From Candidatus Endomicrobiellum roisinitermitis (GTDB lineage: Bacteria; Elusimicrobiota; Endomicrobiia; Endomicrobiales; Endomicrobiaceae): a stretch of DNA of 64,000 bases. Under the pieces are notes generated by a model that had not been told where the DNA came from, searched no databases, and saw only the letters and a list, made by a program, of their open reading frames with translations. This document shows, piece after piece, positions 1 through 11,858 of the stretch (positions are counted from its first letter, which is position 1; each line of letters starts with the position of its first letter). Location of the stretch: assembly GCA_031287855.1 (NCBI GenBank), contig JAITSL010000033.1:1163-65162 (forward strand). The letters are read 5' to 3'. The position numbers were made by a program, and so were the translations under genes.

Positions 1-2745
1 AATTGTACATGTTCCCCATACTACCCAACACTTCTTCTGCCTTCTCTAATCCCACCTTGGCTATCTCCTTTATCTTCCCCCTCATCGTAGGCTCTATCCC
101 ATACTCCCCCATCACATATCTCTCTAAATATTTCTCGTTCCTTACATTCCCTTCTTCATCATAAAATATCCCCCTCAACATCTCTATCCCTTTTATCTTC
201 CCTCCTTCTCCTTTTCCCACTTCCTCCTTGAACTTCTTCCCTAACCCCTTCTTTAACTTCCCTGCCAACTCATCTACTATCTCTTCATCTCTCCTTCCAC
301 TATAATATTCCCCCTTGACCACCTTCTCACTTATCTGTCCCAGCTCCTCCTTACTTATCCGCTCCCCTCCCACCATATCTATCACACCCATCAACTTACC
401 ACTTACCTTCTCCCCCAATAACTTACTTGCATACTCCTTTATCAATCCCTTCGTCTTTTCATCTAAATTCCCCAACATTTCACTTAAATTACTACCCATC
501 TTCTTTACTTCCTCCACCCCTACCCCTTTCAACTCCCCCAACTTCCCTGCTAATTCTTCAAAACTCCCTATCCCACTTAGCCCTTCTATCCCTCTTAACA
601 CCCCTAAATTCAATAGGTCTCCCAACTCCCCCATATCCCTCAATCCTATGCTCATCATCCCTAATATCTCTTCCCTATAATATCCCTCTATTATCCCTAC
701 TATTTCCCCTCCCAACTCCTTGCTACCCTCTATATATCTAAACAACCTTTCTACACTCTCTTGACTCCCGTCTAACCTTGCCACCTCTTCCATTAACCTT
801 TCCATCTCACTTTCTCCCTTCTCTACCAAACCCTTCTCTAATCCCTCTAGCTCTTTGCTATACTTGTCCCCTATCCCTTTCAGCTTCCCTACTATCTCTT
901 CTCTCTTCTTCCCTACCTCATCCCCTATCTTCTCTAGCTCTCCCATTATCCTCTCTATTTCTCCTTCTTTCTCCTTTAATATCTCCTCTTTCTTCTTTGC
1001 TGCTTCTACCCATCCTTGCGCTTTCTTTAAGCTTACTTCATACCCGTTATCCTTCAACTTCTTCTCTATCTTGCCTGCATTAACTCTCAACAGCTCTGCT
1101 GCTCTCTCCTTTATACCTCCTACTCCTATCCCTTCTCCTCCCAATCCTCCTCCTACTCCTTCTATCAATCCTAATACAAAACTCGGTACCTTCCCTTCTA
1201 ACCTCTTCCTTAACTCTACTACCACTTCTTCCTTTATATATTCCTTTACTATCCCTATTACTTTCCCTCTTATTTCTTTACCCTCTCCCAATTCCTTCAT
1301 CAACTCTTCCAATCCCTCCGCACTTCCATCATACCCCCCTATCTTCTCTTCCAACTCCTTACCCATTTCTTCCGTCCACCCACTTACTTCATTCATCCCT
1401 TCTCTCAACTTCTCCTTCAATTTCTCTATCTTCTCTTTAAATACCTTGCTCCCTTCATCCCTTATATCCCCTATCCCTCCTTCTCCTATCACCACTCCTA
1501 CCATCTCTTCCATCTTATTTACCACACTTGCCGGCATCACCTTCTTTAACTCCTCTTTCACCCTTCCCATCACTTCTACTCTTATATATCCCTTCACTAC
1601 TCCCATTATTTTCCCTTTTAGCTCGCTTCCCTCTATGTACCTTATTATCCCTTCTAACCCCTCTACGCTTCCATCATATCCCATCACCTTCTCTATTAAA
1701 CCATACGCTCCTACCACACCTATATCGTATTTCCTTTTTAATTCTTCTACTTCCTTTTTCAACTCCTCTTCTCTCTTCTTTATCCCTTTGACAAGCTCCT
1801 GGTACTTATTTACTATTTCCTCCGCCTCTTTCTCTCCCTTTCCACTCAACTCTTCTATTAACTTCCCTCTATTTTCTATCAACTCTTTCTCTTTCTTCCC
1901 TATTTCTTCAACCTTACTTGCCAACTCTTTCCATTCTTCTTCTCTTGGCCAAACTATTTTTAATGCCTTCCCTATCTTCCCTTTCAAGCCCTCTATGTTC
2001 TCTTTTACTGCTCTGCTTATTATCCCTCTTAACCCCTCACCCCTTAGTTCCTCTATGTCCATTTCCATCATCCTTTCTACCATCCCTCCTACCATCCCTA
2101 TCACTTCTTCCGGCACTTTCCCCTTCAATAAACCCTTGACTCTCCCTACCACTTCTTCCTTTATATACCCCTTGACTATCCCTATTATCTCCCCTCTCAT
2201 TTCTTTACTGCTCTCTAGCTCTCTTATCAGCCCTACCATCCCTTCAAAACTCCCATCTATCCTCTCCAGCTTCTCTACAAATATCCCAAACGGATTTCCT
2301 TTCAAAAATTTACCCCTCTCCTCTAGCTTCCCCTTCACCCCTCCTATCGCCGCTTCATATGCTCCTTCTACCTCCTTTATCCTCCTTTCTACATCCTTTA
2401 TCTGCTCCTCTATCTTACTCTTATCTCCTTCTTTACCTTCTAACCTCCCTCCCAACTCCTCTTTCTCTTTTTTCAACTCCTCTATCACTCCCTCCTTCTT
2501 CTTCCTTGCTTCCTCTTCTACCTTCACCGCTCCTATCCACCCTACCCAATCCTTATCCTCATACATCTTATACCCTCTCCTCTTTAGCTCCTCCTTCAAC
2601 TTCCCTATCCCTTCTTTAAATCCCTTCCCTATCAGCCCCTTTACATCGTACTTGCCTACCAATCCCTCTACACCTTCCTTCATAAAATCAGACAGCCCTT
2701 TTTTATCATCTGAAACATCTTTCCCAAGCAATCTCTGAAAGAGAG
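1..2745 (-). repeat. Cytosine-depleted, purine-loaded G/E/K/I/V-rich repetitive C-terminal region of the giant ORF
   Basis: The + strand is strongly pyrimidine-rich. By hand count the first 120 nt hold 8 G and 32 purines with about 46 percent GC, against 32 purines in 60 nt at 3001-3060. The switch falls within a few codons after the last hydrophobic segment (~2745). A ~40-aa motif recurs four times (see findings). Confidence 0.7.
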
Positions 2746-5700
2746 AAGAATTAAAAAATACTTGTAAAAAAGATATAGCTATAATAAACAACGGATTCAT
2801 ACTTGTAGTACCCAAAATTACAAGCGCCATTGGGACTAACATATTTACTATACCTTTAAAACCATCTTTAGGATTAAAATTAAGAGCTGAAGTTATAACG
2901 CTACCACCAAAACCACCAATTTGATATGAATTTATAACGCTAAACATTCCCAAATAGTTAGATGAGTTATTTTGCAAGTTGTTTGATGAATTATTAGTTT
3001 CAAGCTGCTGACTCGACAAAACAGATTTTGCCTTATTAAGATTGGCCAAAAACATTGAACTAACAGTTGTAGCTAACTGATATAACCTGCTTTGCTCAAA
3101 ACCGTAGGCAGGTCCGTTATATGCAGTTTTTCCAATCTCTAGAGCCTCTACTTCACCTTCCTTTGAAATTTTTGATAATAAATTCTTTAAACTGCCCCTG
3201 CCCCAACCTTTTACAGCAGATGATATTTTTTTTGACTCGTCAACACGATTAAATAAATCTTGAGGAGACGATGTCTGTAGTAATTTTTGCAAAACAAAAA
3301 TTGCTATAAATACAGGAAGCAACCACATAGCACCCATCAAACTTAAAAGAGGCATTACAATAAAAATAAATCCCGCACCAAGCTTACTTAAAGAAGGAAG
3401 TCCTTTTTTCTCACTAGTAGATGGCGCTACAATATTTAAAATAGTAAAAGCTAAACCATATATTCGACACGAATCTAAAAATTGTAAAACAACAAAACCA
3501 CCTCGTGATAGTACACTAGAATAATCTTTTTTTTTATGTTTTTTAGAATCAGTTACATCTTGTGAAAATATTGATGAGGTAGATATAGGATATTCAGCAT
3601 CGTTTGATAACAAATTTTTAAAAATAATATCTACCATTGTTTTAGCTTCAGAATTTTTGAATTCTACAAATTCATTATTTTCTGGAGCTTCAAGTGCTTT
3701 CATCCAACTCTCTAATTCTTCATCTGAAATTAACCCATTATTTTTAAGTTCAGTTAATGTATCCTCAAAATAACTTTGTATTGTAAAACCTTCTATAACC
3801 AAACCATATGATTCTCTATCTAACAACTTCTTATAAGACCTTTTATATTGACCACTACTAGAACCATACAATGAAGCAAAAACTCCAACCATAGCAAACA
3901 CCATACCAATTATAGGCATCGATGCAAGAGAAGATAATAAAATTATTGCAGCTATATGCACAGCAGCAAAAATCAATAATTTAACAATAAATTTCTTAAA
4001 AACCTTTTTATCAAATCCATTTTCAGCCAAATCTCGCAAGAAAGCAAGAATCATCACAATTTCACCACTAAAACTTAAAGCATAAGATGATACAAACTTG
4101 ACCACCAACGTAACAGTTCCAACTATTGAACCTAATGGCACAAAAAAATATACAACATAAAAAGTAACAACTAAAAGAACAAGCGCCATTAAAACAATTA
4201 CAGCTTTAAATTTTTGTTTAGGGTTCGTCAATCTTCCAAAATCTAGATTAAAAACTTTGCTAAGTAAGAAGCCAACTGCACTCTTAAAATTGCGCAAAAT
4301 TGACCCACTAGTGTCTATATAAATCTCTTCCATTAAATCTTGAACAGACTTTACTTCTTCCTTTAGTTCACCTTCTTTGAGTTTTAAATAATCTGAATTT
4401 AAAGCTTTACTAAATTCCAATAGAACAATCTTTGATTTTTCTTCAGAAATGTAATCATAATAAGTTGTTATGGCCTTGATTAAATCAACACTACCATTTT
4501 CAACATCCACAATATCTTTATTTTGCATATATTTAGGCAAATTAAGATTTTTACTATTAAAGCCAGGTTTTATGTCCAAAATTTTTGATATTGTAGGGAA
4601 TTTATTTTTGAAGTCTTCTATAGACAAGTTATAAAGATTTGGACCTTCTACAAACAAACTAAATAAATCTTGCCATTTTTGATCTGTCATAGCATCAATA
4701 GAAGATTCTTCTACTGTACTATCTAAAAGTGTTTGCTTTTTCAACAATAACACTTTTTCCATTGAATTTATTTTATCTGCTACTTTAGGTTGCGCTAATT
4801 CTATTTGTTTTTGCAATTTCTGTACTTCTGTTTCCTTCTCAAACATATTAAATTTTAAAGCAACAACTTGTATAAGTTTCTCTAAACGCTCTTTTCTTTT
4901 TATAAGTTGAGCTCTTTCATAAGATTGTTCTAAATCTAATGCCCGACCTTCAAACAGTTTTAATCTCTCAGTTAGCCTTAAAATTTCATTATTAACAAAT
5001 ATTATTCCACCTTCATTTTCTATTTGTTTTTCAAGAGTCTCTTTTAAAGATAACCGTAGCTCTGTGTTAAGTTTTTTTGTTTGTGTAGTTAAATCATCAA
5101 CTTTTATTGACAATGCTTTTACGTCATTTTGAAGTGTTTGTAAATTATTTAGATTACTAGTATTTTTGTCAATCTCACTACATATTGTTAAAGTAAAATA
5201 AGTAGCCGTTTTCAAATCCGTTTTTGTAACTGGATTCATTTGCAATAAAATATAAATTATTGATTCTCTTAAAGAAAAAGATGCTTTCTGCTCCGATTTT
5301 TCAAAACTAGAAGCATCTATATTTAACTTATCATTTACTCCAAAAACGTCTACTCCTAATGGATTAGACAACAAATAAAAACCTACATCCCTTGCAATTT
5401 TTTTTAATGCTTCTTCTCCTTTTTCTGTAGATATTGTTTGAAAACTTTCAGGCAGCAACAGTTTTATTTTGTTAAACTCACCTAAAACTATTTTTTGATA
5501 CAAAACTTCATTAAACAAATCTAAGTAAGAATTTACAGTTTTGCTATTTGCAATATTCTGCATACCTGCAACATCTATAATGTTTAAATCTAACATACGT
5601 TTTAACACTATTGCAGAAGATATAGGTAAAGCTTGGCTTAAAACATTTTGTAAATCTTCTCCTTTTTTAAACTTTTCAAATAAGTTTTCTTCTGTTTTAA

Positions 5701-8700
5701 TAATCAGAGCTTTTTTAAGACAATCCCACATAAAAGCAGAATTATTCTTTTCATAGCTCTTAGATTTAGCATCTATACCATCAACTATATCTCTTACAAA
5801 AGTTTTAATATCTAAATCTGTATTTTCTTTTTTAAAATAATTTAACAAATCATTTATTACAACTATATCTTTATACCCACTTGCATACACCCCAGTAATA
5901 TCAAAAGAATTACTTCTAAAAGTTAAAAAATCTGGAGCCTTTTCTAATTTTTTAGTTTTACCATCGTAAGAGTTTATGTCATCAGCTAATTGCTGGGCTA
6001 CATATTCATCAATAGTACCAAAACTCATTAATATAGCTTTTGTTATTACAGCCTGAGGGTTTAATTCATGAAACTCTTTTATTTTTTGAACTAAAAAACT
6101 GTCCTTAATATCTTTAAAAATATTGTTAAAATCATTCAAATCAGTCGACGAAAATCTTGAAAGTATATTTTTGATCTTAAAAGATAAGTTTCTTATTAAG
6201 TTTCTTATAATTACACAAAAAAAGTCAAACAAATCCATAATTGAAATAAACATACTTTCAATTAAAGGGGCACTTTTATGTATCCATTTTATTATATCAG
6301 AAGACTTTATATATGATTGGCGTCTCAATTCGTGACGTACAAAAACTTCTAATAAATTTTGATTTATTATGTTCCCATTTTCATCAAAAAATTTAGCTTT
6401 AAAAAAATCATAATTAATTGATATCACCCCTTCTTTAGACAACATTGAAATACTTTCATTGCCAGAAAAAGCCTCGCTAAAACCAGATATCTTTTTAATT
6501 AGTTCAGTTTCGTTTAAGTCTAACAGTATGCCTATGACTCTACTTTTATCAATATTTAAAGCTTCAGAAACAAACTTTTGTACTAAATCTAGTGGAAGAG
6601 CTTTGACTATCTTTTTAAAGATGACAACATTCTCTAAGCCATCAGGGATGTCAGTTTGACTAAGCGATTCTTTAGACAAAAAACTTTTCATATAAAACTG
6701 AAATCCGATAAATGGAATTGAACCTAAAACGATCAAAAGTGGAACTAAAAACCACAAAAAAGATGAAAGTGGAGAAAAAATAATAGCCATAACTAATGCT
6801 ACGCCTACAGCCATAGTGGTATAAAATCCTAACTTTCCTTTAAAATAGTCAATAATGGAATCAATCAAAGATTTTTGTTTGGTTTGTTGAGGTTGTGCTA
6901 TAATACTTTCCACAAAAGCTTGACCATCATATACATATTCTTTAACATTATTGTCTTTAGTAATAAAAAGCCGTACTTGGTTTAAATTATTTATATCGCC
7001 AGAAAGCTCAGCATTTATTCCTTCAGATTCAAAAGCTTTTAGTATTTGATTGATAACATCTAACTTGTACCCCTTCTGTGTTAAAATATCCACTGCTTCA
7101 ATAAACCTTTGCTCTGTTGTAACTTCAGACAAAGGTGATGTTGCAAGCGCCTGGAAAAGTATTTTACTTTGTTCCTTAGCTAAAGCATAATATGCATCTT
7201 GAGCTACCTTTATTCCACTCCCAACGTTTGGAGTTACAACTAAATAAGATACACCCTTACTAGATAACAACTCCGATACCCCTTGGGTATGAAAGCCCCC
7301 AGTAACTACTATATATATTTTTTTTGCATCTTTAAGAGACTTTACAACTTTATCAACAGAAGGCAATGAAATATTTTCCACTTGATTAATCTCTTCATTT
7401 AAACCATTAATATTATTTATAAAATAATTATTTCTATTAAGATTTACTTCATAAAATTGGTTTACTATCTTTTCATATCGTTCTAACATGTCAATCTTTT
7501 TATTATCAACATATTTAACCCAAAGTCTTTTAAATTTCTTTATATTATTTTTATAATACTTATAGTCATCAGATGTAATTTTACTAGTTAGATAATCCTT
7601 TAAATACTGCTCAAAAGTAACTAAAAATGCTACATCCTTTTGTCCCTCATCACTTCCAAGAGCTATACTGATTTCACCTTTCAAGTTTTTTTCTTCTTTT
7701 ACCATTTCCAAAGAATTAATTTTTTGACTCAACTCTATATAATTTAAAAATTTATTTAAATTAGGGAAAGCCTTGGATAAATCTAGACTGTTTTCTCTTG
7801 CAAGTTTAACTAAATATGTATACAACTTATCTGTTTCATTGAAGTTAGCTGTAGCATCAAGTAACATCTTATACACACCATATGGTAGCAACCCTCTCAA
7901 TTTTAAAATAAACTCTTTCAACTCACTAGTTGATTTATCATAATTTATTTCCCTTACCAATTTTAAAAGCGTAATATAAGTTTTTATATTCTCATATTTA
8001 TCTATATCTATACCAAAGCTATTGGCATATTTGTCCATAAGACGAAAATACTTTTCTGAACTCATTGTCAAAAATTCATATTCAGAGTAGATCTCTTCAG
8101 CCTTCTTTTGTTTACTATTGTAGTATAAAGATTTAAGATATTTTATATCGTCATACATGCTTGTTATTATATTCAAAATTTCTGGTTGATAGTTTAAAAT
8201 ATCTCCAAATCTTTTTAAGTTTTCCAAATAAGGTTCTTTGTTTTCTAAACCCTTTATCAAGTCTGTACGATTACTAATAGCAGAATAATACTCTGCACCT
8301 GTTAACATTCCAGTTGCAAAAATGGAATCTATTATTTTTTCGCCACTATTTTTTATTTTAATAAGCCAAGAAGTGTCTAATTGTCCATATGCACCTTCTA
8401 AATATACACTGTTTACTCCATAACTTTTATCAAAAGAAGATATAATATTACCTATATTTTTTTGCACCTGTGGATGCAAATGTAAATCTTGTATATTTAT
8501 TACTACAATATCACTACCTGTATAATTTGCATTTGTTATTTTCCCATAGGAATACGGTAAAGTGAAATCATCAAATATTTGTTTGTACTGCGCGCCTAAC
8601 CTTGTTTGTTCTAACACTTGAGCAACAGCTTGACCATAAACATAAGAAAGGAGGAAACAATTAACTAATACTATGGATATAATTTTTGCACAAGTTAGCT

Positions 8701-8785
8701 CCATCAAATATGGTTTAGCTTTTAACTTAACATTTGAAAATAAAAAAAACCATTTTAAAAGTCTTGTTTTAACCTCTTTTTTCAT
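1..8785 (-). CDS. Giant multi-pass membrane protein, 3' end beyond the window edge (2928 complete codons in window); absent from the supplied ORF track
   Basis: ATG at 8785-8783 with AAGAGG 9 nt upstream. Hand translation stays in one phase (first codon base = 1 mod 3) and reads as sensible peptide at every spot checked: 8785 MKKEVKTRLLKW; ~8480 INIQDLHLHPQVQK; ~7300 KIYIVVTGGFHTQGVSELL; ~7000 GINAELSGDINNLNQVRLFI; ~4250 SKVFNLDFGRLTNPKQKFKA; ~2750 VFFNSSLFQRLLGKDVSDDKKG; ~1690 and ~1340 repeat motifs; 22-2 SMGNMYN. No stop-delimited minus ORF is listed anywhere in 1-8871, as expected if one frame runs open to the edge. Hydrophobic clusters lie at roughly nt 8635-8705, 6700-6830, 3880-4200, 3290-3500 and 2760-2900. 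Full-length continuity was inferred from spot checks, not computed. Confidence 0.75.
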   Translation of the reverse strand, partial: MKKEVKTRLLKWFFLFSNVKLKAKPYLMELTCAKIISIVLVNCFLLSYVYGQAVAQVLEQTRLGAQYKQIFDDFTLPYSYGKITNANYTGSDIVVINIQDLHLHPQVQKNIGNIISSFDKSYGVNSVYLEGAYGQLDTSWLIKIKNSGEKIIDSIFATGMLTGAEYYSAISNRTDLIKGLENKEPYLENLKRFGDILNYQPEILNIITSMYDDIKYLKSLYYNSKQKKAEEIYSEYEFLTMSSEKYFRLMDKYANSFGIDIDKYENIKTYITLLKLVREINYDKSTSELKEFILKLRGLLPYGVYKMLLDATANFNETDKLYTYLVKLARENSLDLSKAFPNLNKFLNYIELSQKINSLEMVKEEKNLKGEISIALGSDEGQKDVAFLVTFEQYLKDYLTSKITSDDYKYYKNNIKKFKRLWVKYVDNKKIDMLERYEKIVNQFYEVNLNRNNYFINNINGLNEEINQVENISLPSVDKVVKSLKDAKKIYIVVTGGFHTQGVSELLSSKGVSYLVVTPNVGSGIKVAQDAYYALAKEQSKILFQALATSPLSEVTTEQRFIEAVDILTQKGYKLDVINQILKAFESEGINAELSGDINNLNQVRLFITKDNNVKEYVYDGQAFVESIIAQPQQTKQKSLIDSIIDYFKGKLGFYTTMAVGVALVMAIIFSPLSSFLWFLVPLLIVLGSIPFIGFQFYMKSFLSKESLSQTDIPDGLENVVIFKKIVKALPLDLVQKFVSEALNIDKSRVIGILLDLNETELIKKISGFSEAFSGNESISMLSKEGVISINYDFFKAKFFDENGNIINQNLLEVFVRHELRRQSYIKSSDIIKWIHKSAPLIESMFISIMDLFDFFCVIIRNLIRNLSFKIKNILSRFSSTDLNDFNNIFKDIKDSFLVQKIKEFHELNPQAVITKAILMSFGTIDEYVAQQLADDINSYDGKTKKLEKAPDFLTFRSNSFDITGVYASGYKDIVVINDLLNYFKKENTDLDIKTFVRDIVDGIDAKSKSYEKNNSAFMWDCLKKALIIKTEENLFEKFKKGEDLQNVLSQALPISSAIVLKRMLDLNIIDVAGMQNIANSKTVNSYLDLFNEVLYQKIVLGEFNKIKLLLPESFQTISTEKGEEALKKIARDVGFYLLSNPLGVDVFGVNDKLNIDASSFEKSEQKASFSLRESIIYILLQMNPVTKTDLKTATYFTLTICSEIDKNTSNLNNLQTLQNDVKALSIKVDDLTTQTKKLNTELRLSLKETLEKQIENEGGIIFVNNEILRLTERLKLFEGRALDLEQSYERAQLIKRKERLEKLIQVVALKFNMFEKETEVQKLQKQIELAQPKVADKINSMEKVLLLKKQTLLDSTVEESSIDAMTDQKWQDLFSLFVEGPNLYNLSIEDFKNKFPTISKILDIKPGFNSKNLNLPKYMQNKDIVDVENGSVDLIKAITTYYDYISEEKSKIVLLEFSKALNSDYLKLKEGELKEEVKSVQDLMEEIYIDTSGSILRNFKSAVGFLLSKVFNLDFGRLTNPKQKFKAVIVLMALVLLVVTFYVVYFFVPLGSIVGTVTLVVKFVSSYALSFSGEIVMILAFLRDLAENGFDKKVFKKFIVKLLIFAAVHIAAIILLSSLASMPIIGMVFAMVGVFASLYGSSSGQYKRSYKKLLDRESYGLVIEGFTIQSYFEDTLTELKNNGLISDEELESWMKALEAPENNEFVEFKNSEAKTMVDIIFKNLLSNDAEYPISTSSIFSQDVTDSKKHKKKDYSSVLSRGGFVVLQFLDSCRIYGLAFTILNIVAPSTSEKKGLPSLSKLGAGFIFIVMPLLSLMGAMWLLPVFIAIFVLQKLLQTSSPQDLFNRVDESKKISSAVKGWGRGSLKNLLSKISKEGEVEALEIGKTAYNGPAYGFEQSRLYQLATTVSSMFLANLNKAKSVLSSQQLETNNSSNNLQNNSSNYLGMFSVINSYQIGGFGGSVITSALNFNPKDGFKGIVNMLVPMALVILGTTSMNPLFIIAISFLQVFFNSSLFQRLLGKDVSDDKKGLSDFMKEGVEGLVGKYDVKGLIGKGFKEGIGKLKEELKRRGYKMYEDKDWVGWIGAVKVEEEARKKKEGVIEELKKEKEELGGRLEGKEGDKSKIEEQIKDVERRIKEVEGAYEAAIGGVKGKLEERGKFLKGNPFGIFVEKLERIDGSFEGMVGLIRELESSKEMRGEIIGIVKGYIKEEVVGRVKGLLKGKVPEEVIGMVGGMVERMMEMDIEELRGEGLRGIISRAVKENIEGLKGKIGKALKIVWPREEEWKELASKVEEIGKKEKELIENRGKLIEELSGKGEKEAEEIVNKYQELVKGIKKREEELKKEVEELKRKYDIGVVGAYGLIEKVMGYDGSVEGLEGIIRYIEGSELKGKIMGVVKGYIRVEVMGRVKEELKKVMPASVVNKMEEMVGVVIGEGGIGDIRDEGSKVFKEKIEKLKEKLREGMNEVSGWTEEMGKELEEKIGGYDGSAEGLEELMKELGEGKEIRGKVIGIVKEYIKEEVVVELRKRLEGKVPSFVLGLIEGVGGGLGGEGIGVGGIKERAAELLRVNAGKIEKKLKDNGYEVSLKKAQGWVEAAKKKEEILKEKEGEIERIMGELEKIGDEVGKKREEIVGKLKGIGDKYSKELEGLEKGLVEKGESEMERLMEEVARLDGSQESVERLFRYIEGSKELGGEIVGIIEGYYREEILGMMSIGLRDMGELGDLLNLGVLRGIEGLSGIGSFEELAGKLGELKGVGVEEVKKMGSNLSEMLGNLDEKTKGLIKEYASKLLGEKVSGKLMGVIDMVGGERISKEELGQISEKVVKGEYYSGRRDEEIVDELAGKLKKGLGKKFKEEVGKGEGGKIKGIEMLRGIFYDEEGNVRNEKYLERYVMGEYGIEPTMRGKIKEIAKVGLEKAEEVLGSMGNMYN

Positions 8786-8843
8786 GTGTTTAAACCTCTT
8801 CTCTTTTATTATTTATATTTTTCAAATTGTGTATATATAAAAT

Positions 8844-8883
8844 ATAACAACCTAGCTTTATAGTTATAAAGCTAGGTTGTTAT
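8844..8883 (-). terminator. Perfect 19-bp palindrome (ATAACAACCTAGCTTTATA gt TATAAAGCTAGGTTGTTAT); possible terminator of the upstream ORF or an operator in front of the giant gene
   Basis: Arms 8844-8862 and 8865-8883 are exact reverse complements. It overlaps the stop of ORF 8872-9441. On the minus strand it is followed by ATTTTATATAT. Its centre lies ~78 nt upstream of the giant-gene ATG. Confidence 0.4.
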
Positions 8884-9441
8884 TGTTATAATATTACTTT
8901 TTATTATTTTGTGTAGGTTCTCTTTAGGTATACCCCTAGGTAATACCAACATAAGAATTAAAAATAATAAAATAAATCTTATAAATTCTCTATTTTTTAA
9001 AAAATAAAAATTAAAGCTATCATTTATATCAAGACAAAAACTTCTCCTACCCCTACAAACTTTTGACAAACTGTTTAACGGCAATACCATCACTGGGGAA
9101 TTAATTAATTTATCTGCTTTTTGTTGGTTGCCATTTTGAGCAAAAAAACAACGACAGCATTTTGCCAATTCTTCACTTATTAAATTATTTTCATATACAC
9201 ACAAACCAAATATACTCGTTATTTTGATCACTGGAATATTTATACTTTTATAAACCTTTAAAAGTCCACCACCCAAATTTAACACAACAGTATCTGAAGA
9301 TTTCAAAGATATAGCATCTGAACTTTCTAAAATTGATATGGCAAGTATATTAAAAAGAATAGATATCGCTATTATTATAGCGACTATAAAATTTAGACAA
9401 TGGTAATTTTTTATTATATTTTTCATTGTTTTTATCAACAT
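8872..9441 (-). CDS. Hypothetical membrane protein
   Basis: ORF of 189 aa with hydrophobic N-terminal (FIVAIIIAISILFNILAISIL) and C-terminal (FIRFILLFLILMLVL) segments. No recognisable family. Confidence 0.35.
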   Translation of the reverse strand: MLIKTMKNIIKNYHCLNFIVAIIIAISILFNILAISILESSDAISLKSSDTVVLNLGGGLLKVYKSINIPVIKITSIFGLCVYENNLISEELAKCCRCFFAQNGNQQKADKLINSPVMVLPLNSLSKVCRGRRSFCLDINDSFNFYFLKNREFIRFILLFLILMLVLPRGIPKENLHKIIKSNIITITT

Positions 9442-9630
9442 TTATGTACATTTAGACATACAGCAAATAAAAACAACTTCTCAAATTACACTAAAAAATT
9501 TTACCTAACAAAATTGATTCTACTATATACTTTATACAAAAATAAAAAAGAAAAGAAAATACTTCATAAATTTTGTACAATACTTAACTAGTAAGAAGCT
9601 TTCAAGGTTAGCAAATCATATACTAAATTT

Positions 9631-10779
9631 ATGATAAAAAAATTACATTTGTATATTCTTAAAGAGTTTTTCACTTCTTTTATTTTCGGAATATTAGTAT
9701 TTTCACTTCTACTTATTCTAAACATAGCATTTGAGCTAGTAGAACTTACTTTATCTAAAGGTGTCGCTATTTTCCTTGTCTTAAAGTTATTTGTTTTTTA
9801 CTTGCCTAACATTCTAACACTCTCTATACCAATGTCAGTACTATTTGGCGTTTTACTTTCATACGGGAAATTATCTTCAGATAACGAAATTACGGCCATG
9901 AAATCTTGTGGACTAAACTATAAAACATTAACAACTCCGGCAATATATTTCGTATGCATTCTTTCAATATTTTTAATTTTTTTTAACCACTTTATAGCCC
10001 CTACAATAAGCAATCACTCTAAACATCTTTACGAAGAAATTATAACAAAAAGTCCCCTAGCTAGATTTGATGCAAAATCAATCACAAATATTGGAAATTA
10101 TAGTTTATATGCAAACAAAGTAAACAACAAAACAAATTCTTTATTTGGCCTTAATATATACAAATTCCAAAACAATGATGAAGATACAAGTAAAAAAAAC
10201 AAAAAGGATATTTTGCCTCAAAACGACAAAGAGAGTTGGAGAATATCTGCTGCTAGCGCCTCACTAAAAGCCTACGATAATGGAATACAACTTACATTAC
10301 ACAATGGATATTTACAAAAGGCAAACCCAGCTAACATGTCAGAAATTACACATATGACTTTTAAAAAATATATCTTTTTTATTTTTCTTGGAGAAAACAT
10401 TAAAAAAGATACTATTACACTTGCATCAATACAATCTCCTCAACTTCTAAAAATCATAGATGAGTGTAAACAACAGGCAATGCCATTATCATCATATGTA
10501 AATTATCAAAGAGATTTCTGGCTTAGATGGGTTTTTGCAATAGCCCCAATTTCTTTTGTTATTATCGCATTACCTATAGGACTTATAAGCAACAAAAGAG
10601 GTAAGGTAATGGGCTTTGGAGTAAGTTTAGGAATAACTATTCTTTACTACATGCTTTTTCTTATATCTACAAGTTTAGGAGAAAAAGAATATGCTCCTTT
10701 AAGTATAATAATGTGGCTACCTAACTTTCTAACTGCGTTAATAGGCTCATATTTGTTTTTTAAAATGGTGAAAAAATGA
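9631..10779 (+). CDS. lptF: LPS export permease, LptF/LptG (YjgP/YjgQ) family
   Basis: 382-aa polytopic protein followed by a 360-aa paralog with a 4-nt overlap. It has the typical N-terminal TM bundle, a central soluble loop and a C-terminal TM bundle. Confidence 0.7.
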   Translation: MIKKLHLYILKEFFTSFIFGILVFSLLLILNIAFELVELTLSKGVAIFLVLKLFVFYLPNILTLSIPMSVLFGVLLSYGKLSSDNEITAMKSCGLNYKTLTTPAIYFVCILSIFLIFFNHFIAPTISNHSKHLYEEIITKSPLARFDAKSITNIGNYSLYANKVNNKTNSLFGLNIYKFQNNDEDTSKKNKKDILPQNDKESWRISAASASLKAYDNGIQLTLHNGYLQKANPANMSEITHMTFKKYIFFIFLGENIKKDTITLASIQSPQLLKIIDECKQQAMPLSSYVNYQRDFWLRWVFAIAPISFVIIALPIGLISNKRGKVMGFGVSLGITILYYMLFLISTSLGEKEYAPLSIIMWLPNFLTALIGSYLFFKMVKK

Positions 10780-11858
10780 TAAAAGTCATTTATAGTTATA
10801 TTATTAGAAACTTTATTAAAATATTCTTTTTTACTACAGCAGCATTTTCGCTTGTAGTAACAATATCAGTATTATTTAACCATATAAATTTTTATATGGA
10901 GTACAAAGCTTCTTTTCACACAATAATGTTGCATTTGTTTTCTAATCTTCCAGAATGGCTCATACAAGGACTTCCTATAGCTACTCTTCTAGCTCTTTTA
11001 TTTTCTATAGGTAATTTATCAAAAAATAATGAAATAACTGTAATAAAAGCATCCGGCATAAATTTATGGAATATCATCATTTTGCTTATGATTATAGGAT
11101 TTACAATAGGCATTGGAGATTTTTCAGTAAGAGAACTTATAATCCCTAAAACAAGTCTCTATAATGAAAAAATCAAACATGCAGCAATTAAAAAGGAAGA
11201 TATCTCAATACAAACAGATTTTTACAACAAAATAGTTCCTCTTCCAAATAACATAAGAATGACAATTGGGCACTTAGATACAAAAGCAAGAACAATGAAT
11301 AATATTGTTATGGAAAAATATGACCAAAACTTTGTTCTAAAACGCCTTGTGTTAGCGCAAGAAGCAGTATGGGAAAATAACTCCTGGGTTCTAAAAAATG
11401 GCATTATGAGAAATTTTGACTCTGATTTTTTGAACGAAATCAATTTTAAAAGTTACAATTCACATATAAATATTACACCATCTGACATGTCTGTACAAGA
11501 TATGCGTTATGACACAATGAATGTTAAACAATTTAAAAAATATATACACCAATTAAAAATTTTTGGACAATCTGCAATCAAAGAAAGAATAGTATTAAAC
11601 ATGCGTTTTGCTTCAGTTTTTGCACATATTATAGTTATGATGGTTGGTATATCTTTTGCTTTAAGTCCTGGGAAAAGAACTAGCAGAATTCTAAGCTTTA
11701 CACTTGCACTTGTGGCAGCCTTGACGTACTGGATAGTTCAGGCTATAACTAAAACACTTGGAGAAAATCTTGTATTTTCTCCTTTTATAGCAGCTTGGCT
11801 TCCAAATATTATATTTCTAATTATAGGTATATACTTGCTTAATAAGGTAAGAAAATAA
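10776..11858 (+). CDS. lptG: LPS export permease, LptF/LptG (YjgP/YjgQ) family
   Basis: Paralog of the preceding ORF with the same architecture, translationally coupled to it. Confidence 0.7.
   Translation: MIKVIYSYIIRNFIKIFFFTTAAFSLVVTISVLFNHINFYMEYKASFHTIMLHLFSNLPEWLIQGLPIATLLALLFSIGNLSKNNEITVIKASGINLWNIIILLMIIGFTIGIGDFSVRELIIPKTSLYNEKIKHAAIKKEDISIQTDFYNKIVPLPNNIRMTIGHLDTKARTMNNIVMEKYDQNFVLKRLVLAQEAVWENNSWVLKNGIMRNFDSDFLNEINFKSYNSHINITPSDMSVQDMRYDTMNVKQFKKYIHQLKIFGQSAIKERIVLNMRFASVFAHIIVMMVGISFALSPGKRTSRILSFTLALVAALTYWIVQAITKTLGENLVFSPFIAAWLPNIIFLIIGIYLLNKVRK

Follow-up and report, generated by a model that had tools for sequence, protein, structure and literature searches.

The giant gene and its surroundings

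We analysed a stretch of 64,000 nucleotides (the 64-kb window), which begins within a giant minus-strand open reading frame (Table 1). This ORF is stop-free from window position 8812 to nt 2, has an ATG at 8785 and exits the window at its left edge. The full database protein of the ORF (P0001; annotated 'MAG: hypothetical protein LBU10_03025, partial [Endomicrobium sp.]') comprises 3316 amino acids and is itself partial, its true length being at least 3316 amino acids, and it is 100% identical to the 2013-amino-acid query representing the N-terminal part of the protein (N-part). Homologue searches with the N-part returned 205 proteins at E <= 1e-3, the best non-orthologous one at E ~1e-190 and most covering ~25-43% of the query. 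By homology, the N-terminal region defines an uncharacterised giant-protein family of Endomicrobia and Elusimicrobia, to which the protein belongs by a shared N-terminus of ~500 amino acids followed by transmembrane clusters. Searches of Pfam, NCBIfam and PDB sequences with the tract described below, the tail, the N-terminus and the middle of the protein gave no match above threshold. The ORF directly upstream is syntenic among relatives (188 amino acids in L002 and L005), showed no NCBIfam match and possibly shares a transcript with the giant gene. One tRNA gene is located within the window.

The C-terminal third of the ORF within the window is formed by a purine-loaded tract, which ends at residue ~2920-2935, barely past the window. 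It lies in a loop starting at a hydrophobic cluster and ending at a second transmembrane segment (residues 2952-2970) just past the window.

Table 1. Features of the giant gene and its surroundings in window coordinates; D1 and D2 are given as nucleotide positions.
Feature	Position (nt)	Strand	Residues or remarks	Basis
Giant ORF	2..8785	minus	2928 codons inside window	3' end beyond window start
Conserved N-terminal region	6986..8608	minus	~aa 60-600; motifs QDLHLH and GGFHTQG	homologue search
Hydrophobic (transmembrane) cluster	2738..2863	minus	adjoins tract on upstream side	Kyte-Doolittle scan
Purine-loaded tract	2..2690	minus	aa ~2033-2928 in window	base composition, codon counts
MKEGVEG motif	2663..2683	minus	start of duplicated unit; coincides with composition change point	sequence comparison
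Repeat core copy 1	2111..2281	minus	aa 2169-2225, DGSFEGMVGLIRELESSKEMRGEIIGIVKGYIKEEVVGRVK...	D1 2146-2208, D2 2226-2276
Repeat core copy 2	1520..1699	minus	aa 2363-2422	D1 1567-1629, D2 1644-1694
Repeat core copy 3	1184..1354	minus	aa 2478-2534	D1 1219-1281, D2 1299-1349
Repeat core copy 4	659..796	minus	aa 2664-2709	D1 661-723
189-aa ORF	8872..9441	minus	directly upstream of giant gene, same strand	ORF list; synteny
627-codon antisense ORF	855..2738	plus	not a gene	stops: 38, 5, 11 in plus frames

Composition switch and codon choice

In 150-nt steps along the coding strand, the composition changes from C ~0.11, G ~0.18, purine ~0.55 and GC ~0.28 before the switch to C 0.013-0.073, G 0.34-0.45, purine 0.72-0.84 and GC ~0.43 inside the tract, confirming a discontinuity which an earlier reading of the sequence alone had proposed to examine with sliding windows. 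Overall, the coding strand contains A.37, C.11, G.18 and T.35 before the switch compared to A.386, C.034, G.399 and T.181 in the tract, resulting in ~78.5-79% purine (84% at third positions), a GC skew of 0.84 and a GC content of 43% versus 28% in the remainder of the gene. This agrees with the rise to ~45% GC noted earlier, and the 8 G counted in the first 120 nt of the plus strand are exact. None of the other 300-nt windows of the stretch is comparable (z ~ -4 for the tract in both plus-strand purine content and GC skew), the richest stretch outside it reaching 0.65-0.67 purine. A maximum-likelihood analysis places the change point at nt 2681 for pyrimidines and nt 2690 for C, ~20 codons past the last hydrophobic segment (2738-2794), so the switch reported near nt 2745 is real and does follow this segment but occurs slightly further downstream. 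Similarly, the cytosine starvation ascribed to the tract holds as far as the C content is concerned, but pyrimidines are avoided in general and G is enriched, the choice between T and C in Asp, Asn and Tyr codons being unchanged, which argues against a C-specific avoidance.

The tract composition predicts a stop with a probability of 0.083 per codon, i.e. one per 12 codons as stated in the sequence-only reading, resulting in a log10 probability of -34.5 for 915 open codons, and the other two coding-strand frames contain 185 and 51 stops. As these 915 codons lack a stop and carry on the frame of the N-terminal 2013 codons, the tract is coding, supporting the earlier assignment of the minus strand as coding strand and of an in-frame junction within a single ORF. 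The long antisense ORF is a by-product: with T and C shunned at the third position of sense codons, the in-phase TTA, CTA and TCA required for plus-strand stops are nearly absent; gene callers could take it for a gene.

The encoded sequence is dominated by the residues named earlier, i.e. E (18.1%), G (16.2%), K (14.1%), L (9.2%), V (8.4%), I (7.9%), R (5.0%) and M (3.6%), with E, G, K and R together accounting for 53%, while A (2.6%), P (0.7%), Q (0.7%) and T (0.3%) are scarce and H and C do not occur. Charged residues make up ~40% of the tract but are balanced (K+R 19% versus D+E 21%), which does not fit the suggestion of a domain selected for extreme charge.

The proposed comparison of codon usage with the rest of the genome, for which 49 other genes were used (46-60% purine; genome 30% GC), revealed a strong bias at synonymous sites supporting selection at the nucleic-acid level. 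At four-fold degenerate sites the ratio of purines to pyrimidines is 247:34 in the tract, 281:376 in the N-part and 2473:3147 in the other genes, corresponding to 88% purine in the tract versus 44% elsewhere (Fisher p = 7e-51). Ile is encoded by ATA in 72 of 72 tract codons (52% elsewhere), Lys by AAG in 70% (17-24% elsewhere) and Gly by GGG or GGA in 87% (39-45% elsewhere), AAG, GAG and GGG taking the place of AAA, GAA and GGT. The resulting codon vocabulary consists of GAR, AAR, GGR, AGR, ATA, ATG, GTR and TTR, and the leftover pyrimidines are mainly those required by the protein, i.e. T at codon position 2 of Ile, Val, Leu and Met. The amino-acid composition alone raises the expected purine fraction from 0.55 to 0.705, with GC skew rising from 0.17 to 0.66; if the protein were recoded according to genome codon usage, 70.5% purine and 30% G would result, compared to the observed 78.5% and 40%. 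Thus, about two thirds of the purine excess come from the amino-acid composition and the remainder is synonymous.

Shine-Dalgarno-like motifs are very dense in the tract, as its composition predicts, and such a motif accompanies only 4 of the 33 in-frame ATGs at a spacing suited to initiation; for these reasons we dropped programmed internal initiation.

Repeat module, ordinary paralogue and relatives

The tract contains a helical module in at least four copies, which have diverged and lie ~115-195 amino acids apart (Table 1); no inverted repeats were found in it. The motif starting the duplicated unit recurs at residue 2987, past the next transmembrane segment, and a further copy of the module spans residues 2975-3190 of P0001. 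At the level of the protein data, this copy shows an ordinary amino-acid composition and matches four purine-type repeats with composition-adjusted E-values of 5e-9 to 5e-6. The presence of a paralogue of ordinary amino-acid composition (the ordinary paralogue) within the same protein indicates that the tract arose in place rather than by acquisition. A second stretch of purine-type amino-acid composition follows at residues 3190-3316. AlphaFold (single-sequence) predicts nearly all helix for the tract, with a mean pLDDT of 41 being too low for fold comparison.

The switch is found at the same position in L002 (JGI 3300042636; 70% amino-acid identity), L003 (JGI 3300042652) and L005/L007 (GCA_031257835.1). 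Tract length varies from 2.7 kb here to ~0.6-1.1 kb in L005 and ~0.1 kb in L003, and, compared with L005, nucleotides diverge by 15.7% within the tract versus 6.0% within the N-part. By a simple Nei-Gojobori count on a very skewed composition, dN/dS in the tract is 0.31 in the comparison with L004 (218 codons) and 0.23 in that with L002 (101 codons), L003 and L005 being omitted as their tblastn matches are paralogous or out-of-frame; the N-part shows 0.31. These values point to purifying selection on the tract protein and, together with the conserved core and the ordinary paralogue, distinguish it from a simple-sequence placeholder peptide free of protein constraint. Polarised substitutions in the tract comprise 22 purine-to-pyrimidine and 7 pyrimidine-to-purine changes, counts which derive from few sites and are subject to parsimony bias, and neither branch shows an imbalance of A<->G changes. 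The excess of purine-to-pyrimidine changes weakly hints that the tract could be eroding instead of being maintained.

The suggested search for the repeat domain in other genomes succeeded at the orthologous sites of close relatives; HMMER against 1.84 billion representative proteins retrieved just five fragments, all of them short and with 55-80% identity to the tract. A word-indexed homologue search with the tract yielded 8000 candidates and none that was significant, low-complexity words having probably saturated the candidate list. Protein-pattern scans of genome and metagenome contig collections for the tract gave no match, and neither did a degenerate DNA pattern derived from the conserved IGIVKGYIK core in the contig collections, from which a complete gene copy was not recovered. 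Among the 120 relatives listed of the 205, a purine-type region is present only in this protein and in P0002, its 70%-identical orthologue.

Proposed selection on the transcript and comparison with known systems

The shortage of pyrimidines extends to silent positions even though the encoded module is conserved, so the nucleic acid of the tract itself seems to be under selection. As a tentative explanation, plausible though short of probable, we propose that in the tract a repeat domain which is functional and expandable has been purine-loaded to an extreme degree by selection, with the transcript as probable target. The selected molecule would probably be the sense transcript, and the benefit would consist in avoiding termination, decay or structure. 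According to this model, a translated, lineage-specific repeat domain would fill the loop between two transmembrane segments of the Endomicrobium protein of at least 3316 amino acids, and selection on the nucleic acid would drive its codons to a near pyrimidine-free set, in addition to the usual purifying selection that acts on the protein. A 2.7-kb RNA with 79% purine and 3.5% C would be unable to fold on itself; it would be devoid of hairpins and poor in Rho-loading YC dinucleotides as well as in U-rich endonuclease sites, and the hybrid of purine RNA and pyrimidine DNA would be stable within the polymerase. A spacer domain built in this way could be enlarged by duplication, and the distal domains of an mRNA of >10 kb would still be made without prior termination, polarity or decay.

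In silico data are consistent with this model. The predicted minimum free energy per 150 nt is -7.1 kcal/mol for the tract compared to -23.0 kcal/mol for the N-part and -24 to -25.5 kcal/mol for three other genes, suggesting little self-pairing and bearing out, as a computed property, the unstructured purine-only mRNA proposed in the sequence-only reading. The density of YC dinucleotides is 6/kb in the tract versus 48/kb, at a C/G ratio of 0.09. The other 6 kb of the mRNA are ordinary in composition, so a general argument based on mRNA length fails to explain the location of the tract, and it is not obvious that the G surplus beyond purine-only coding, i.e. AAG over AAA and GAG over GAA, reflects a need for unstructured RNA.

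We regard it as unlikely that the composition reflects a function or side effect at the DNA level, according to which the G-rich non-template strand forms R-loops or undergoes strand-asymmetric recombination, so that the loop domain expands, contracts and diverges rapidly as a hotspot of variability. Such a role would fit a non-template strand with 40% G, 3.4% C and a skew of 0.84 across 2.7 kb, the variable tract length and higher divergence among relatives, and the three assemblies breaking within such tracts. However, the G clusters nucleating R-loops or quadruplexes are depleted (z = -6 and -3.5): compared to synonymous shuffles, GGGG occurs 38 times versus 73.5 expected (z = -6), GGGGG 9 times versus 24.8 and quadruplex motifs twice versus 3.7. 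This depletion argues that nucleation of G-quadruplexes or R-loops is not the selected property, disfavouring the R-loops considered earlier as well as an mRNA G-quadruplex of the EBNA-1 type. The triplex structures likewise considered do not fit a longest unbroken purine run of 23 nt, T interrupting such runs about every 5 nt, while H-DNA would demand a long uninterrupted one. Moreover, no recent high-identity tandem repeats were found in the tract, and dN/dS speaks against diversifying selection.

Selection at the level of translation is likewise unlikely to be the cause. In this case, purine-ending codons read with few U34/C34 tRNAs and an ATA-specific tRNA-Ile would provide a special elongation rate or a dependence on wobble-U modification. 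Many of the purine-ending tract codons are seldom used in this AT-rich genome, the strongly purine-biased third positions are dominated by G-ending codons uncommon elsewhere, and Lys and Glu, the codons of which depend on 2-thio-U34 tRNAs, together account for ~32% of codons. Such selection explains neither the purine enrichment at first positions nor why T, P, Q, H and A were lost.

A charged, Gly-rich helical spacer (E, K, G and R with I, V, L and M) might also be required by the loop as such, the purines following passively from selection acting only on the protein. The large share of the purine excess and skew attributable to the amino acids, the dN/dS showing that the protein matters and the predicted helix agree with this view, but it does not account for the synonymous shifts described above nor for conservative D-to-E, N-to-K and F-to-L exchanges, each turning a third-position pyrimidine into a purine, and the protein's own homologous copy differs in amino-acid composition. 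The synonymous-site bias refutes protein-level selection as the sole cause, and we consider this alternative doubtful.

A local strand-specific mutational bias without selection, e.g. by transcription-associated damage of the exposed coding strand, appears improbable: the tract evolves faster than the remaining gene and the depletion of C on the non-template strand has the direction expected from deamination, but deamination raises T, whereas T is halved (0.35 to 0.18) and G doubled against the AT bias of the genome. In addition, the paralogous module ~1 kb away on the same transcript lacks the purine-type amino-acid composition, and the balance of A<->G changes does not support such a bias.

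That a fused or horizontally acquired module, e.g. from a purine-loading thermophile, is present, as had been suggested, is very improbable: its higher GC content and its superficially hyperthermophile-like usage of ATA, AGR, AAG and GAG are outweighed by the near absence of matches among the 1.84 billion representative proteins and the lack of any in two collection scans, by the ordinary paralogue in the same protein and by the presence of the tract at the same site in L002, L003 and L005; we know of no genome with ~3.5% C on its coding strands. Finally, an assembly chimera or sequencing artefact at ~2.7 kb can practically be dismissed, as three independent assemblies from other samples (L002, L003 and L005/L007) cross the in-frame junction at the same residue, and the contigs of P0001, L002 and L003 ending inside purine tracts rather indicate that such regions are hard to assemble, leaving giant genes truncated.

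Purine loading of the transcript, the explanation we prefer, would mean that selection on composition overrides codon usage and reshapes the amino-acid alphabet, as is usually discussed for viruses, parasites and thermophiles and is unusual for a bacterium. The sharply bounded tract with the ordinary paralogue as internal control makes the question testable. The wider proposition that bacteria can re-encode a functional domain in a near pyrimidine-free, reduced alphabet through selection on transcript or gene is put forward with more reserve still, as a possibility. If true, the tract would constitute a termination-, decay- and structure-proof segment, or a purine-motif RNA platform, inside a giant mRNA, a cellular counterpart to viral purine loading and a natural experiment in which a helical module tolerates an alphabet dominated by ~8 amino acids.

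Purine loading of mRNAs has been described in connection with the transcription-direction rule of Szybalski and by Forsdyke, its extremes being the Gly-Ala repeat in EBNA-1 of Epstein-Barr virus and low-complexity inserts of Plasmodium (PMC13311203). Our literature search found this concept but no account of a tract of this kind from either bacteria or giant genes. The tract shares with these examples the strong purine excess on the mRNA-synonymous strand (78.5% versus 55% in the 49 genes), third positions that are almost exclusively purine (84%; 88% at four-fold sites), the location between functional parts of a protein and the reduced self-pairing of the RNA. In contrast, the host is a mesophilic gut bacterium, neither a virus nor a eukaryotic parasite; the tract consists of diverged, spaced modules under a dN/dS of ~0.3 with an ordinary paralogue, unlike a placeholder; G-quadruplex motifs are depleted and not used as in EBNA-1; and evading a double-stranded-RNA alarm of the host, as in the viral case, is not an obvious rationale in a bacterial cell. 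PMC13311203 and PMC4060949 cite Lao & Forsdyke (2000) and Paz et al. (2004) for genome-wide purine loading and oligopurine mRNA tracts in thermophilic prokaryotes. Common to both are the enrichment of A as well as G, the preference for ATA, AGR, AAG and GAG and the richness in E, K, R, I and V, but the effect reported here is confined to 2.7 kb within a single gene, in a genome of 30% GC, and exceeds theirs by far (79% purine, 3.5% C).

R-loop-prone regions in which the non-template strand is G-rich include immunoglobulin switch regions and GC-skewed promoters, and the tract resembles these in showing GC skew and non-template G density of similar magnitude across kilobases; it differs from them in being coding, in evolving under purifying selection and in the selective depletion of G clusters. 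The protein resembles other giant membrane proteins of Endomicrobia and Elusimicrobia (P0002-P0120; 1100-3500 amino acids) in its N-terminus of ~500 residues and its several transmembrane clusters, while other members of the family carry enzyme domains instead, i.e. HD, PEP-utilising, metallophosphoesterase, glucanotransferase or helicase domains.

A purine switch inside one open reading frame

The coding-strand composition, scanned in 150-nt steps, changes abruptly within a single ORF, as the sequence-only reading had claimed for a cytosine-starved, purine-loaded switch near nt 2745. Before the switch (down to window nt 2785) C is ~0.11, G ~0.18 and purine ~0.55, whereas from nt 2635 on C is 0.013-0.073, G 0.34-0.45 and purine 0.72-0.84, with GC rising from ~0.28 to ~0.43. 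The likelihood change point lies ~20 codons beyond the last hydrophobic segment and coincides with the motif MKEGVEG; nothing comparable comes close elsewhere in the 64-kb window. The earlier hand count for the first 120 nt, 8 G, is right, as is the expectation from composition of a stop about every 12 codons, resulting in a log10 P of -34.5 for 915 open codons; the remaining two sense frames contain 185 and 51 stops across the tract. The long antisense ORF is a by-product of the sense codon vocabulary, since sense position 3 lacks pyrimidines; gene prediction could list it as a protein rich in Ser, Leu, Pro and Phe.

Positions of features in the window, in the database protein P0001 and in related loci
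Sequence	Feature	Position	Strand	Remark
Window	Giant ORF	8812 to 2	-	ATG at 8785; exits window; 2928 codons, 0 stops
Window	Purine-loaded tract	2-2690	-	
Window	Likelihood change point	2681-2690		
Window	MKEGVEG motif	2663-2683		
Window	Antisense ORF	855-2738	+	627 codons; TTG start
Window	Site equivalent to HExxH	6320-6334	-	aa 818-822
Window	ORF directly upstream of giant gene	8872-9441	-	189 aa
P0001	End of purine-type domain	~aa 2920-2935		
P0001	Transmembrane segment	aa 2952-2970		
P0001	Paralogous module	aa 2975-3190		Ordinary amino-acid composition
P0001	Second purine-type stretch	aa 3190-3316		Seen at the amino-acid level only; contig ends within
L003	Second purine-type stretch	2301-2476		DNA: C 2-5%, G 38-39%
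L008	Second purine-type stretch	1434-2537		
L002	Integrase, transposase (rve) genes, tiny ORFs	4187-5980		
L003	Shortened tract region	1242-1727		
L005 (JAIRNY010000026.1)	Split giant gene	4096-10991		

The junction is crossed in assemblies from other samples, i.e. at the related loci L002, L003 and L005/L007, and a chimeric join at ~2.7 kb is thereby rejected. L002 (JGI 3300042636; 70% amino-acid identity, synteny with LptFG and the upstream ORF) switches at the same residue to C 0-2.7% and G 40-46%, its contig stopping 330 nt further. In L005/L007 (GCA_031257835.1) the tract measures ~0.6-1.1 kb, and L003 (JGI 3300042652) keeps the two transmembrane segments with ~45 residues between them versus ~935, the intervening DNA still being purine-rich; there the tract was deleted, never expanded or collapsed in assembly (a short, frameshifted contig). 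Purine tracts are also where the contigs of P0001, L002 and L003 terminate; tracts of this kind thus seem to interrupt short-read assembly and leave the gene truncated.

The giant protein, its family and its repeat modules

The neighbours of the giant ORF (LptF/LptG, SecA, PriA, ValRS, GTP-PEPCK and Lnt) place it on the chromosome of a diderm bacterium of ~30% GC. P0001, annotated as 'MAG: hypothetical protein LBU10_03025, partial [Endomicrobium sp.]' (70,422-nt contig; protein length 3316 aa), is a 100% match to the N-terminal 2013 aa and continues past the window end, where the purine-type domain is followed by a transmembrane segment, by sequence of ordinary amino-acid composition and, ~270 aa past the end of the first tract, by a second purine-type stretch. 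This second stretch includes the beginning of a domain that is conserved (GHEMVYDVYVREVEG.HVIGLKLK); the 59%-identical homologue P0126 is of ordinary composition.

Endomicrobia and Elusimicrobia have a large family of giant proteins, 1100-3500 aa long, uncharacterised and unnamed, of which this protein is a member. They have ~500 N-terminal residues in common, with the motifs QDLHLH and GGFHTQG, and carry enzyme domains that vary by member (HD, PEP-utilising, metallophosphoesterase, 4-alpha-glucanotransferase/phosphorylase, SecA-type DEAD helicase). Pfam, NCBIfam and PDB sequence searches gave no match for any part of the giant protein, the shared N-terminal part included. Among the 120 family members listed, only P0001 and its orthologue P0002 have the purine-type region. 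Distant members (P0004, P0007, P0009, P0011) show a metalloprotease-like HExxH motif (HELRH, HELEH or HEIRH); the same site reads HELRR or HELRK here and in the orthologues P0002 and P0003, the second His thus having been lost in this clade. The upstream ORF, without family match, may be an operon partner of the giant gene because its synteny is kept in L002 and L005/L007 (188 aa in each). A few kb upstream in L002, beyond LptFG from the giant gene, lie integrase and transposase genes, so that gene order near the locus differs between relatives.

The tract contains four copies of a ~50-aa core (DGS.EG...L...IEGS.E..G.I.GIVKGYIKEEV.GRVK) at spacings of 194, 115 and 186 aa, with DNA-level remnants of the repeats being 68-89% identical. 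The paralogue of ordinary amino-acid composition aligns to all four copies (E 5e-9 to 5e-6, with compositional adjustment) and to the segment immediately after the first transmembrane cluster; a unit of transmembrane segment, MKEGVEG and module was therefore duplicated inside the gene, one copy having been multiplied and become purine-only. A HMMER search of the tract against 1.84 billion representative proteins returned five matches, all short fragments 55-80% identical to it. A foreign insert, proposed earlier as a fused or horizontally acquired module, is rejected by these few fragments, by the paralogue within the same protein and by the relatives switching at the same site.

Protein constraint and codon choice

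By the Nei-Gojobori method, which counts simply and was applied here to a very skewed composition, dN/dS of the tract is 0.31 against the related locus L004 (218 codons) and 0.23 against L002 (101 codons), compared with 0.31 for the preceding 2013 codons (N-part) against L002. The N-part is relaxed in L005 (0.44) and L003 (0.80), whose copies are both frameshifted and probably represent decaying genes. In L005/L007 the giant gene at the syntenic position is broken up into ~12 small ORFs through +/-1 homopolymer shifts, an insertion of 14 nt and a deletion of 18 nt. The adjacent genes for DAHP synthase and EPSP synthase are likewise fragmented, suggesting reductive decay of the genome or else an assembly of lower quality. 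Evolution is faster in the tract than in the N-part, the nucleotide divergence from L005 being 15.7% versus 6.0%, and involves large insertions/deletions. AlphaFold without alignment predicts the tract as almost all helix, but confidence is low (mean pLDDT 41).

Of the tract residues, 53% are E, G, K or R, the sole amino acids whose codons can consist of purines alone; T, P, Q, H, C and A add up to 4.3%. D, N and F are down, E, K and M up, L is almost unchanged and the Leu:Phe ratio is up ~three-fold, a pattern expected for pyrimidine-to-purine change at position 3. Comparison of codon usage reveals a strong synonymous shift as well: purine:pyrimidine at four-fold sites is 247:34 in the tract versus 281:376 in the N-part and 2473:3147 in 49 other genes (p = 7e-51), with Ile ATA at 72/72 (elsewhere 52%), Lys AAG at 70% (17-24%), Gly GGR at 87% (39-45%) and Val GTT at 5% (46-47%). 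For Asp, Asn and Tyr, the choice between T- and C-ending codons is the same as elsewhere, so the pressure is against pyrimidines and for G rather than C-specific. Recoded with genome-typical codons, the tract protein would come out at 70.5% purine, 30% G and 36% GC, versus 78.5%, 40% and 43% observed; amino-acid choice contributes about two thirds to the purine excess and silent codon choice one third.

The anatomy of the tract is well supported. We regard it as shown that it is translated into a repeat domain which is restricted to the lineage, varies in length and occupies a loop flanked by transmembrane segments. Purifying selection acts on the protein, and a separate pressure lowering pyrimidines and raising G is superimposed.

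Candidate selective agents and known systems

Selection acting on the transcript is our best, though tentative, inference. The sense RNA of the tract is predicted to fold hardly at all (-7.1 kcal/mol per 150 nt; N-part -23.0, SecA, ValS and PEPCK -24 to -25.5) and no inverted repeats were found in it, in line with the earlier suggestion, at the level of prediction, of an unstructured purine-only mRNA. The YC dinucleotide is the primary binding motif of Rho; it occurs at 6 per kb in the tract versus 48, and an antisense transcript would carry 316 per kb at a C/G ratio of 11.6. A spacer growing by duplication would be tolerated only without new hairpins ahead of the distal domains, and would likewise have to add no Rho-loading or cleavage sites before them. 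Selection on the transcript does not explain the confinement to one segment or the use of G over A. Selection on translation through a subset of R-ending codons and tRNAs and effects at the DNA level are both live alternatives. SD-like motifs are dense (GGAGG 7.7 per kb versus 0), yet at the level predicted from composition. Local mutational bias fits poorly: T is halved and G doubled, contrary to the genome's AT bias, the paralogous module ~1 kb off in the same transcript lacks the purine-type amino-acid composition, and neither branch shows an imbalance of A<->G changes. Selection for R-loop, quadruplex or triplex formation, raised earlier for triplexes and R-loops, is disfavoured because G-runs are depleted against synonymous shuffles (GGGG 38 versus 73.5, z = -6; GGGGG 9 versus 24.8) and the longest purine run is 23 nt; quadruplex motifs are not enriched in the tract over such shuffles.

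The tract is a real and unusual feature, the selective agent of which is amenable to experimental test. Such a tract was not found in open-access text on bacteria or giant genes. The nearest described phenomenon is purine loading, reported for the EBNA-1 Gly-Ala repeat with third-position purines and 'placeholder' residues and for Plasmodium inserts (PMC13311203), and genome-wide in thermophiles (Lao & Forsdyke 2000; Paz et al. 2004, according to the passages of PMC13311203 and PMC4060949 citing them). Strand asymmetry, purines at third positions and loss of RNA folding are features that the tract has in common with it. In contrast to described purine loading, the tract resides in a bacterial and mesophilic host, is restricted to part of one gene, consists of constrained diverged modules instead of a simple repeat and avoids G-runs.
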